Source of the DNA: Clostridia bacterium
GTDB taxonomy: Bacteria > Bacillota > Clostridia > TANB77 > CAG-508
Length of the DNA stretch: 64,000 nucleotides
Assembly (NCBI GenBank): GCA_017939755.1
Contig: JAGBAJ010000042.1
Coordinates: 31,563 to 95,562, forward strand
Direction: 5' to 3'
The notes below the pieces were generated by a model. The model made no database searches. It had not been told where the DNA came from and saw nothing but the letters and a program-made list of their open reading frames with translations. The position numbers and the translations under genes were made by a program. Below are positions 1,957 to 49,762 of the stretch, in pieces. The number at the start of each line of letters is the position of its first letter. Position 1 is the first letter of the stretch.

Positions 1957-2249
1957 TATATTCGACCTCCAATCGAATTATGTTTATGGTCGGGTATTCG
2001 TCAAAAGACTATACGCCTTTTGGGCTTATTCGCATATGCTGCATTTACGCAACATACAGAATAAGTACTTTGACTTTGTTTTTGGTATCAACCTCCAATA
2101 TTTGTTAATTATTTTGTACACGAATTCCATACGGAAATTCATGTAGTATTATATTACCTTTTGGGTGTTATGTCAATTGATTTGCAATATAAAAAGAGAA
2201 TCTATTGTAGAATTTGTTACGATTCACAGATTAATTGCATTTTATATAA

Positions 2250-2403
2250 GATTAGCGATATAGTGTAAATTTATAATATGAAGTTAAGGTGGGGACCAGC
2301 AAATTAGAGAATTTAATTTTTACAAGTGTATAACGCAGTAAAAACGTAAATTCTCTTATGTAGCTGGGGCGTAATATTATAAATTTACACTATATCGCTA
2401 ATC
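2250..2403 (+). ncRNA. Copy 1 of a 154-nt structured repeat element: a perfect 30-bp closing stem around a conserved core (GAAGUUAAGGUGGGGACC...GCUGGGGCG). An additional outer 14-bp inverted repeat spans 2216-2229 / 2424-2437.
   Basis: Inverted repeat 'attagcgatatagtgtaaatttataatat' / 'atattataaatttacactatatcgctaat'. Core is conserved with the copies at 6633-6786 and 49609-49762. Inner helices covary between copies (CCAGC/GCUGG vs CCAAC/GUUGG; agagaattta/taaattctct vs agagaatcta/tagattctct). Confidence 0.45.
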
Positions 2404-2459
2404 TTTATTATTTAATTCTAAAGCTGTGAATCGTAACTAAAACTTAGGTTCTCTATATG

Positions 2460-2798
2460 TTATCTACCAAATAATTTTTTCAATTTTTGTATAATTCTTT
2501 TAAGCCAACTTTCTTTTTTTCCTTCTATAATTAGTCCCTTTTCCATTTGTTTTTTATTTTTTTCATCAGCCCAGTAATCTAAGTATATATTAGATAAAAT
2601 TCCTTTGGTTATATCAGATATATTCTGCTCATTTATATCTTTGCTATAGTCTATAGAAAAATCATACTTGGTGTCCATATTTCTTTCTAATGACAATATT
2701 AGCTCTTTAGGAAGTTTGTTATAATTTTTTATAGACATGTTATTAATTATTGTTAATGCTTCTGTGCAAGCTCTACTATATTCATCATTCATTGCCAT
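2460..2798 (-). CDS. Hypothetical small protein (112 aa), overlapping and apparently translationally coupled to the upstream kinase-like gene
   Basis: ORF of 112 aa that overlaps the 323-aa ORF by 14 nt. No recognisable motifs. Confidence 0.4.
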   Translation of the reverse strand: MAMNDEYSRACTEALTIINNMSIKNYNKLPKELILSLERNMDTKYDFSIDYSKDINEQNISDITKGILSNIYLDYWADEKNKKQMEKGLIIEGKKESWLKRIIQKLKKLFGR

Positions 2799-3756
2799 TA
2801 TCCCCTTCCATCTTTTGATATATTTTGTTTAAATATGATTTAGCATCATTATGACATTGAAAAGAAACTTTATTAGCTATGCTTTCAATGTCCTTTACTG
2901 AGGTTAAAACAGATGTGTCTTGGGGTTGAATTCCATATAATAATTCGTTTTGCTTCGTTATTAATGCCATTTTTCTTCCTATATTATTACAAATTTTATT
3001 AATATCTTGCTCACTTATTGATCTAAAAACTGGCATATTAAGAATTCCATTGATATAATCTCTTGTTAAGTATTTCTGTAGGGATTTTGAAACTTCTTGG
3101 ATAGACTCTGGATATTTTTGGTACATTTCCATCATAATATCTATATCTGACTTACCATCATAATTTGTATCTGAATCACAAAAAGCCATGCTCATGTCGT
3201 AGTACATATCTGGATTACGAACTATCCCGCTCTTTTCATCAAAAATTAGCCTACAATTATCGCTTTTTATATCAGTATTTCCAATAAAAGCTGATATAAA
3301 AATATATTTCTTAAAGAATTCCTTTCTTTGTTGCCAAAATTCGATTGGAATGCTAGGATATAAGGCACTATATGTGTACGCATCTAATTCGATGCTATTG
3401 TCTATTCCAATTGGTAATTGTGGTAATCTAATATCCTGAGAATTAAATGTAGTCGTATTTTCTAAAAATTGCTCACCATCCCTTAGAATATCCATAGATA
3501 AACAGCCAGTTTTTCCGTTATCATCTTGTGTAAGCTGAATATTTGCAGTACGTATTCCTGCCGAGTTAAGTATAAGAGAGCCTAGTAATTCCCTTAAATC
3601 TGTATTTTTACCAGTAAAGCAATTTTTTTTATAAAGTCCCTTCTTTCCCAGCTCTGGAACATAGTATTCTTCTATAATAGAGCCATCGCTTGCTTGTAAG
3701 TTATTTTCACTATTTATTTTCTTACAGTCATGTAAATTAATTCTATTAAAGTTCAT
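2785..3756 (-). CDS. Hypothetical protein, possible HipA-like / protein-kinase-fold protein (candidate toxin)
   Basis: 'IGNTDIKSDNCRLIFDE' resembles the HipA catalytic loop 'GNTDDHLKN' and the Hanks-kinase 'HRDxKxxN' pattern. 'VRNPDMYYD' resembles HipA 'LAPAYD'. The assignment is from a weak motif-level resemblance only. Confidence 0.35.
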   Translation of the reverse strand: MNFNRINLHDCKKINSENNLQASDGSIIEEYYVPELGKKGLYKKNCFTGKNTDLRELLGSLILNSAGIRTANIQLTQDDNGKTGCLSMDILRDGEQFLENTTTFNSQDIRLPQLPIGIDNSIELDAYTYSALYPSIPIEFWQQRKEFFKKYIFISAFIGNTDIKSDNCRLIFDEKSGIVRNPDMYYDMSMAFCDSDTNYDGKSDIDIMMEMYQKYPESIQEVSKSLQKYLTRDYINGILNMPVFRSISEQDINKICNNIGRKMALITKQNELLYGIQPQDTSVLTSVKDIESIANKVSFQCHNDAKSYLNKIYQKMEGDNGNE

Positions 3757-6632: not shown

Positions 6633-6786
6633 AAATTCGGGGTATAATATAAATTTATAAAGTGAAGTTAAGGTGGGGACCAACAAGTTAGAGAATCTAA
6701 ATTTTACAAGTGTATAACGTAGTAAAAAATAGATTCTCTTATGCAGTTGGGGCGAAACGTATAAATTTATATTATACCCCGAATTT
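6633..6786 (+). ncRNA. Copy 2 of the 154-nt structured repeat element
   Basis: Perfect 27-bp closing stem 'aaattcggggtataatataaatttata' / 'tataaatttatattataccccgaattt' around the conserved core 'gaagttaaggtggggaccaacaag...gcagttggggcg'. Confidence 0.45.
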
Positions 6787-49608: not shown

Positions 49609-49762
49609 GACTCTAAGATATAGAGTTAATTTATGTTGTTCCGCCCCAACTGCGAAGAATAAGTACTTGCTGCTTTGCTACCCGCTTGCAGCATTCACTT
49701 ATTCTATCTTGTCGGTCCCCACCTTAACTTTACATCATAAATTAACTCTATATCTTAGACTC
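49609..49762 (-). ncRNA. Copy 3 of the 154-nt structured repeat element (reverse orientation)
   Basis: Perfect 27-bp closing stem 'gactctaagatatagagttaatttatg' / 'cataaattaactctatatcttagactc'. The minus strand carries 'aagttaaggtggggaccgacaag...cgcagttggggcg'. Apical region differs from copies 1 and 2 but still forms a hairpin ('gctgc...gcagc'). Confidence 0.45.

Follow-up and report, generated by a model that had tools for sequence, protein, structure and literature searches.

Three long hairpins that share one conserved center lie at gene ends in a 64,000-nt chromosomal segment (29% G+C) of a Clostridia bacterium (GenBank assembly GCA_017939755.1, contig JAGBAJ010000042.1, positions 31,563 to 95,562; hereafter the window, meaning this whole stretch). 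The reading that we favor, and to which we lend about even credence, is that they belong to a new family of foldback DNA repeats, similar to miniature inverted-repeat transposable elements (MITEs) or repetitive extragenic palindromes (REPs), that carry an invertible conserved core and occupy the gene ends of a few uncultured gut Clostridia. By its behavior across related genomes the element looks nearer to mobile DNA than to a classical RNA gene.

Three copies of a folded element in the window

A preliminary description of this DNA had reported three copies of an unannotated element in which a common core is enclosed by long inverted repeats, and this stands. Exactly three occurrences of the 17-mer AAGTTAAGGTGGGGACC from the core are present in the window (at 2281, at 6665, and at 49714 on the minus strand), where chance would give 0.03. 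With a covariance model trained on the core, the three copies score 76-89 bits and the rest of the window 11 bits or less, and a search within the window returns the three known copies only. The element had been taken to be unannotated, and it matches no Rfam family: a scan of the whole window against Rfam 15 at gathering thresholds gave no match, and the matches to copies 1 and 3 under a relaxed E-value were all at chance level (E no better than 0.49).

Taking in the copies from other genomes described below, the element measures ~155-230 bp and consists of near-perfect inverted-repeat arms of 23-51 bp (P1) around a core of ~100 nt. All copies fold as the same rod, which runs from P1 through a GA-opposite-GA junction, a possible weak GUU/GGC contact, and a 10-nt bulge (AAGGUGGGGA) to a short helix, P2 (consensus CCRRC/GYUGG), then through a small internal loop to the P3 hairpin. 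The stretch from 2200 to 2450 around copy 1, for example, folds whole as a single rod (DNA fold of -59 kcal/mol, z = -14 against shuffles). The window features are as follows.

2248-2405, plus strand (G-rich strand on plus): copy 1, P1 arms and core; inverted repeat of 32 bp, 100% complementary; covariance-model match of 76 bits at 2274-2379
2248-2279, plus strand: copy 1, left arm of P1, pairing with 2374-2405
2374-2405, plus strand: copy 1, right arm of P1, pairing with 2248-2279
2213-2232, plus strand: copy 1, left half of an outer nested inverted repeat, 90% complementary to 2421-2440
2421-2440, plus strand: copy 1, right half of the outer nested inverted repeat, partner of 2213-2232
2286-2295, plus strand: copy 1, conserved unpaired G-rich bulge AAGGTGGGGA
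2296-2300, plus strand: copy 1, 5' strand of P2, CCAGC, pairing with GCTGG at 2363-2367
2363-2371, plus strand: copy 1, 3' strand of P2, GCTGG, followed by the conserved GGCG
2303-2359, plus strand: copy 1, P3 hairpin (arms 2303-2321 and 2341-2359), an inverted repeat with helix covariation
6633-6786, plus strand (G-rich strand on plus): copy 2; P1 at 6633-6659/6760-6786, 27 bp, 100% complementary; core; P3 at 6690-6739; covariance-model score of 87 bits
49609-49762, minus strand (G-rich strand on minus): copy 3; P1 at 49609-49639/49732-49762, 31 bp, 94% complementary; core; P3 at 49656-49705; covariance-model score of 89 bits
49562-49781, no strand assigned: the stretch of 220 nt that separates the stop codons of two convergent genes (DUF1980 protein and AI-2E transporter) and contains copy 3

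These coordinates amend the preliminary description in its details. A length of exactly 154 nt holds for copies 2 and 3, whereas copy 1 measures 158 nt from arm to arm; the closing stems are perfect in copies 1 and 2, whereas that of copy 3 has two mismatches. The arms, which had been called unrelated between copies, share TAAATTTAT and GATATAG blocks in which changes are matched on both arms, and they are therefore diverged homologues. The intergenic terminator positions had been rightly recognized: copies 1 and 2 lie between tandem genes and copy 3 between convergent ones, and the flanking genes are of the housekeeping kind (purA, aspartokinase, yabP/yabQ, secA, and those of the DUF1980 protein and the AI-2E transporter).

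The pairing resembles that of a DNA palindrome kept complementary

Covariation of the internal helices, as previously claimed, is borne out by 28 distinct copies, in which 95.7% of cells are paired (73% in shuffles, 29-48% with slid partners), helix covariation scores 0.60 (shuffles, 0.19), and both partners have changed in 14 of 20 pairs. Covariation is what a structured noncoding RNA would show, but the changes here are almost Watson-Crick only, and these are also produced by a DNA palindrome. The nine pairs of the P3 main stem combine many double changes with one one-sided change and one G·U, and mismatches in the P1 arms comprise 10 G·T and 8 A·C in 1120 aligned positions, with no strand bias. 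Such rare and symmetric G·T and A·C mismatches, together with the double changes in P3, are as expected if templated repair maintains the complementarity of a palindrome. An RNA helix compensated step by step would yield another pattern, and the almost purely Watson-Crick pairing fits DNA-level homogenization better than RNA selection.

The core, on the other hand, shows some strand-specific constraint that the long stems lack. It is only on the G-rich strand that G·U pairs are found, namely at helix ends and at a single P2 position, and a MAFFT alignment counts 34 G·U to 7 A·C; the variable P2 position is G·U in 14 of the 28 copies and A-U in 13. In 26 of 27 copies the G-rich strand forms the more stable fold; the mean advantage is 8.4 kcal/mol.

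One of the two readings in the preliminary description was a functional structured RNA, that is, a multi-copy small RNA or a cis-acting element of the 3'-untranslated region made by transcription of the G-rich strand, in which P1 would be an RNase III processing stem freeing a rod of ~100 nt and the G-rich loop would bind a ligand, a protein, or a target. It can draw on the strong P3 covariation, on conserved unpaired nucleotides between variable helices, on the one-sided G·U pairs and the greater stability of the G-rich strand, and on two positional features detailed below, the orientation bias relative to neighboring genes and slightly more T after the hairpin on the G-rich strand. We nevertheless rate it as rather unlikely. 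The main stems are almost purely Watson-Crick and the arm mismatches strand-symmetric; there is no conserved upstream promoter, because the flanks of paralogous copies are unrelated; and the G-rich strand is antisense between co-directional genes, so that read-through cannot make it. In the comparisons that follow, moreover, the core is flipped between orthologous loci, one orthologue (L123) has kept the stems without the G-rich motif, and close relatives are without the element at all three window loci. Of the earlier structured-RNA reading the covarying helices remain, whereas the chemistry of the pairs, the symmetry of the arm mismatches, and the antisense position of the folding strand count against it.

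The core is inverted between orthologous loci

The preliminary description had noted long inverted repeats around a common core, and what it missed is that the arms behave as DNA inverted repeats across which the core has been flipped. Two of the loci compared (loci and contigs are labeled L plus a number), L075 and L093, were identified by comparison of neighboring open reading frames (ORFs) as the same locus with the element in opposite orientation; in their alignment, flanks and arms are collinear and the core alone is reverse-complemented. Five further assemblies of this locus, L121-L125, divide likewise, with L075, L121, and L122 in one orientation and L093, L123, L124, and L125 in the other. 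In L122 and L093 the flanks are identical and so are the 27-bp arms, and the core of one matches the reverse complement of the other's at 100% identity. At least two inversion events are needed at this locus. Misassembly is unlikely, since the 27-bp perfect arms are shorter than the k=99 given in the L093 contig name and orientations are consistent within lineages; L123, L124, and L125, for example, are three independent assemblies that agree.

The same comparisons show how the arms change. Between the orthologues L076 and L090, the flanks are 98.5-99% and the core 100% identical, but the arms only 91-93%. In L123 the G-rich bulge has decayed to AAAGUAGGAACC, whereas the arms are near-perfect and P3 remains paired, with a compensated change from T-A to G-C. 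Recombination between arms would explain both their perfect complementarity and their fast divergence.

Both orientations of a segment between inverted repeats are what a programmed invertible switch (inverton) presents, in which a site-specific recombinase would flip the core at high frequency and so toggle a gene-end signal, for example a C-rich Rho-loading or termination module on one strand. The two or more inversions at one locus, including the pair with identical flanks, arms, and core, speak for such a switch, as do the inverted repeats of 21-50 bp around ~100 bp, a layout found in known clostridial switches (those of C. difficile flg and cwpV are flipped by RecV), and the strong orientation bias between co-directional genes, which implies that orientation matters. 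Yet the arms differ within one genome, which would leave a single recombinase without a common site, no recombinase gene lies nearby, and the core is without promoter or terminator consensus. The neighbors are housekeeping genes (purA, yabP, secA, infB-rbfA) rather than typical phase-variable loci, inversion was seen only between convergent genes, where it is perhaps neutral, and the five copies in the genome CAKPDY01 all have one core orientation, so that flipping is not rampant. We regard a programmed switch as unlikely.

At the inverting locus, the arm sequence occurs once more on its own, 32-43 nt beyond the element in the direction of the 174-aa gene (L075:3664-3686 and L093:7001-7022).

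Relatives carry empty sites

Presence/absence polymorphism at orthologous sites, together with dispersed copies, is characteristic of mobile repeats and is found here. At the copy 3 site, L127 (DUF1980 protein 86% identical) has 34 nt between the convergent stop codons where the window has 220 nt, from which the inserted unit would be larger than the 154-nt palindrome, ~185-210 nt; these 34 nt are non-palindromic, with no long palindrome. Around the copy 2 site, the 20-kb loci L117-L120 (YabP 89-90% identical) contain no element and carry an ordinary terminator, AAAACCCAGATTAATCTGGGTTTTTTT, after the aspartokinase gene. At the copy 1 site, the closest relative, L116, has neither the element nor two unannotated ORFs present between rho and purA in the window. 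At a fourth locus, between the 174-aa and 329-aa genes, L126 is without the element and has 74 nt of spacer in which an ordinary bidirectional terminator lies. The terminators at empty sites have 8-bp stems unrelated to the arms. Because the empty sites are without long palindromes, the arms must arrive together with the element.

This bears on the second reading of the preliminary description, a short mobile core inserting into the apex of pre-existing long palindromes, which would account for copy-specific arms and could call on the nested outer inverted repeats around copy 1 and L037. The empty sites, being 34 non-palindromic nt or 8-bp-stem terminators unrelated to the arms, do not show the palindromes that this requires, and arms at unrelated loci are homologous, their similarity fading outwards from the core, with which they move. 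Insertion into palindromes is largely refuted, and we consider it very improbable. The interpretation given in the preliminary description is, taken together, partly supported.

No target-site duplication was detected, in that neither copy 3 nor the CAKPDY01 copies, whose ends are not base-precise, are bordered by a visible direct repeat. Closer relatives (YabP 91-97% identical) have contigs that terminate inside or before the element. Four short-read Logan contigs from the window's species and its 97% relatives (L107, L109, L116, and L131) terminate inside the element upstream of yabP, which indicates that the repeat breaks assemblies.

The family is known so far from a few gut Clostridia and its arms are copy-specific

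An exact-pattern scan of one genome per species, anchored on AAGGTGGGGACC and TGGGGCG, found at least ~22 true copies, all in metagenome-assembled genomes (MAGs) of low-G+C uncultured gut Clostridia, besides many chance matches in G+C-rich genomes. Carrier MAGs among the matches listed are CAWVJY01, CABUKD01 (98.5% identical to CAWVJY01), CAKPDY01, CAKPRA01, CANQGW01, and CAADUD01. Metagenome contigs supplied 6 more copies. Beyond the three in the window, the family thus has at least ~27 distinct copies from six MAGs and six metagenome contigs. Carrier genomes hold 3-7 copies each, dispersed at unrelated housekeeping loci. The search for further members by covariance model also extended the family, the core model recovering one extra, degenerate copy over ~230 kb of related loci. 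By contrast with these genomes, viral contigs gave 0 matches in the exact-pattern scan, and blastn of copy 2 against phage and plasmid collections gave no match. The core sequence led only to unrelated papers in the literature and is not printed in any relevant one, and a broader literature search brought up nothing more specific than general studies of stem-loop families and of how RNA is selectively processed and stabilized.

Two copies lie inside the conserved infB-rbfA-nrnA-truB row of CAWVJY01 (L037:2400-2499 on the minus strand and L037:4135-4240), so that the element is tolerated between normally co-transcribed genes; one of the two is degenerate (44.6 bits, bulge GGCUGUGGGGA).

Across the family the center is conserved and the arms are not, even within one genome. 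In CAKPDY01, five copies have common asymmetric, non-palindromic termini, ACTACAGAGTAG|GCTAAA... and ...TTTAGC|CGAACAACTGCAAAAG, around a variable P1 middle; no solo occurrence of these end motifs, which might have marked a target sequence, was found outside elements. Two arms were also compared with phage sequences and gave chance matches only (E of 1 or more), and the idea that arms are phage-directed guides or spacers was dropped on that ground.

Several further irregularities of arms and flanks were noted. In L112 (2384-2427 and 2611-2658) and L113 (832-881), the arm is built in its outer part from a 25-26-nt unit (TTTTGGGGACACCTTCCGAAAGT) repeated in tandem, with at most two units per side, an arrangement reminiscent of transposon ends that carry several binding sites for protein. 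Some 60-90 nt away from the element, another repeat, GGACCAAAGGGG...GGGCATAAATTGTCC, occurs beside L007 and, inverted, on both sides of L037, where the pair makes a nested outer palindrome like that of window copy 1. On its right side the metagenome contig L110 agrees with L029 in arm and flank, but on its left side both are different, and 6 of 33 positions are mismatched between its arms; either two copies have recombined or the contig is an assembly chimera through the common core.

Position and orientation relative to genes

The copies lie 14-56 nt past a stop codon. At co-directional loci the G-rich strand is antisense to the genes at 10 of 11 and sense at 1; eight loci have a convergent-gene context. 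The GC skew is uniformly negative across the window, which is thus one replichore, and the G-rich strand lies on plus in copies 1 and 2 and on minus in copy 3. A purely replication-linked orientation rule was rejected, since copies occur on both strands of one replichore.

The position is right for a terminator, and the element stands where related genomes have ordinary terminators. The 12 nt after the hairpin are slightly T-richer on the G-rich strand (mean of ~6.1 against 5.1 T). Upstream of the element no conserved promoter was found, promoter-like matches being at shuffle level (32 against 32.3 expected) and the candidates inconsistent between copies; within the core, consensus scans and inspection of the alignment revealed no conserved sigma-70-like promoter or terminator consensus.

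Strand-specific folding also invites comparison with mobilization as single-stranded DNA by an HUH/Y1 enzyme, REP-like with a REP-associated tyrosine transposase (RAYT) or as an IS200/IS605-derived palindrome-associated transposable element (PATE), in which the folded G-rich strand would be the substrate hairpin. The asymmetric CAKPDY01 ends without evident target duplication agree with this, as does a GT[AG]G tetranucleotide directly 5' of the palindrome in all five CAKPDY01-type copies (GAGTAG|GC, GAGTGG|CC), GT[AG]G being the head motif of REPs. In the window copies no such head is evident directly beside P1; a similar TRYAGA motif lies 83-95 nt upstream of the core in copies 1 and 2, but could be chance, ~0.16 matches being expected per copy. 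Work by Ton-Hoang et al. in 2010 is said to place the active strand of IS200/IS605 on the lagging-strand template, so that it shares the sense of genes on the leading strand. In this family 10 of 11 co-directional loci have the folding strand antisense, and it occurs on both strands of one replichore, which is not the arrangement of a PATE, and no Y1 transposase was seen near any copy. We think mobilization of this kind quite unlikely. Structured RNA, programmed switch, and HUH/Y1 mobilization each lack a defining feature in the tests run.

A proposed foldback repeat with an invertible core

If the element is a foldback DNA repeat, the whole unit, arms included, would spread to gene ends. The two arms would undergo recombination or templated repair with each other, as would the two sides of P3, and this would both flip the core and keep the arms perfectly complementary during their quick divergence between copies. 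The conserved G-rich internal loop, folding on one strand only, would be the site recognized by a putative trans-acting protein (a transposase, recombinase, or nuclease), probably as folded single-stranded nucleic acid. The long hairpin, with its A-rich and T-rich shoulders, would serve as a transcript-end hairpin for the adjoining genes, and selection on the effect of the core within transcripts would keep the G-rich strand antisense between co-directional genes. The G-rich core is then probably the recognition module of the putative protein, and the element at rest probably fulfils the position of a terminator.

Several observations weigh against this proposal. The arms differ between copies while the center is constant, unlike in classical MITEs and REPs, and all five CAKPDY01 copies have an identical core orientation relative to their asymmetric termini. 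No partner gene, whether transposase, recombinase, or other, was found in the 8-20 kb around the copies, an all-against-all comparison of the 101 neighboring ORFs giving no recurrent family except orthologues. The terminator role is one that we infer; a consensus terminator scan flagged no site at the elements, and T-richness after the hairpin is variable and not consistently on the expected side. No insertion boundary is base-precise, because the relatives with empty sites have only 62-90% amino-acid identity. The invariance of AAGGTGGGGACC and TGGGGCG arises partly by construction, as these were the search anchors, although the adjoining conserved positions were unconstrained in the first scan. 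A functional RNA, too, would be compatible with the restriction of G·U pairs to one strand, with the strongly conserved internal loop, and with the biased orientation.

A further proposal, to which we would assign a low probability, is that the core is a new folded motif in which two facing G-rich strands between two helices form a perhaps G-quadruplex-like or protein-bound loop, carried on a flip-flop cassette. The family would then be one of dispersed gene-end modules that can switch orientation, the strand of each deciding what adjoining transcripts or replication forks meet; just as well, it could be the substrate of a putative hairpin-recognizing enzyme that rebuilds one arm from the other whenever the element moves.

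Neighboring sequences of copy 1

On one side of copy 1 (window 1957-2176, minus strand), purA has a perfect sigma-70 promoter, TTGACA-17-TATAAT, at 2176..2148. Behind the promoter comes a ~190-nt leader, conserved in the relative L116 as well (CTTATT...AATAAGCCCARAAGG...CTTTTGACGAATA...CGATTGGAGGTCG); Rfam gave no match to it even at E up to 10, and it may be an unclassified regulatory leader for purine metabolism. On the other side, between rho and copy 1 (window 2460-3756, minus strand), lie two overlapping ORFs of 323 aa and 112 aa without Pfam or NCBIfam match, both missing from the same place in L116, the closest relative. The region downstream of rho is different in every relative examined.

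Comparison with known systems

Small palindromic repeats are common in bacteria, but in this family their layout is reversed. The REPs and their mosaics (bacterial interspersed mosaic elements, BIMEs), REPINs, and enterobacterial repetitive intergenic consensus (ERIC) sequences of Proteobacteria are likewise short multi-copy intergenic hairpin repeats that sit within operons or past stop codons, can face either way, and are believed to stabilize or terminate transcripts, and one subgroup here (the CAKPDY01 type) has a head similar to the GT[AG]G of REPs. In REP, REPIN, and ERIC sequences, however, the stem is conserved and the loop varies, whereas here the center is conserved and the arms diverge yet remain complementary; the host is also different (Clostridia), no RAYT is known for the family, and there is no sequence similarity or Rfam match.

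MITEs such as the Neisseria Correia/NEMIS elements, pneumococcal RUP and BOX, and Bacillus cereus bcr1 share the size of ~100-160 bp, the non-coding and dispersed character, the long hairpins, and presence/absence polymorphism, and some MITEs with long hairpins serve as terminators or RNase III substrates. They differ in having family-wide terminal inverted repeats and target-site duplications, in place of which this family has copy-specific arms, a conserved part that is central, and no detected duplication. Invertons, for example C. difficile flg and cwpV or the Mpi-dependent promoters of Bacteroides, also comprise ~100-200 bp between inverted repeats, in both orientations in close genomes; they carry a promoter or terminator, govern surface or motility genes, and are acted on by a dedicated recombinase with recognizable sites, whereas this family has variable arms and lies beside housekeeping genes, and neither promoter nor recombinase was found for it. 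The flip/flop terminal hairpins of parvoviruses and poxviruses offer a mechanistic analogy, and only an analogy, since they too have an asymmetric center that occurs in two inverted-complement forms between perfect stems, and copying of one arm from the other would explain perfection and inversion alike; these hairpins stand at the ends of linear viral genomes and depend on rolling-hairpin synthesis, whereas the present elements are internal to a bacterial chromosome.

Within Clostridia, stem-loops at the 3' ends of operon genes are important (PMC4423207); they are intergenic, follow closely on stop codons, whether within an operon or at its end, and have a part in the selective processing and stabilization of RNA (PMC4423207, PMC8219983), but they are unique and short and do not form a repeated family with a conserved core. 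Dispersed stem-loop repeat families, for their part, are widespread, including in Clostridium genomes (PMC2267715).

The comparison across related genomes provides direct evidence for a center that flips between arms, and it offers a concrete case in which seemingly compensatory double changes come from DNA-level palindrome homogenization, which calls for caution in covariation-based discovery of noncoding RNAs. Elements that replace terminators at housekeeping genes and break short-read assemblies are also relevant to the annotation of these gut Clostridia MAGs. If a specific enzyme does recognize the G-rich core, or if the core acts in RNA, the family would represent a new mobile-element mechanism or RNA motif in little-studied gut Clostridia. 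Set beside the systems above, the kind of element is known and the family undescribed, its unusual features being the conserved center with copy-specific perfect arms, the flipping core, and an almost Watson-Crick-only covariation that mimics RNA selection.

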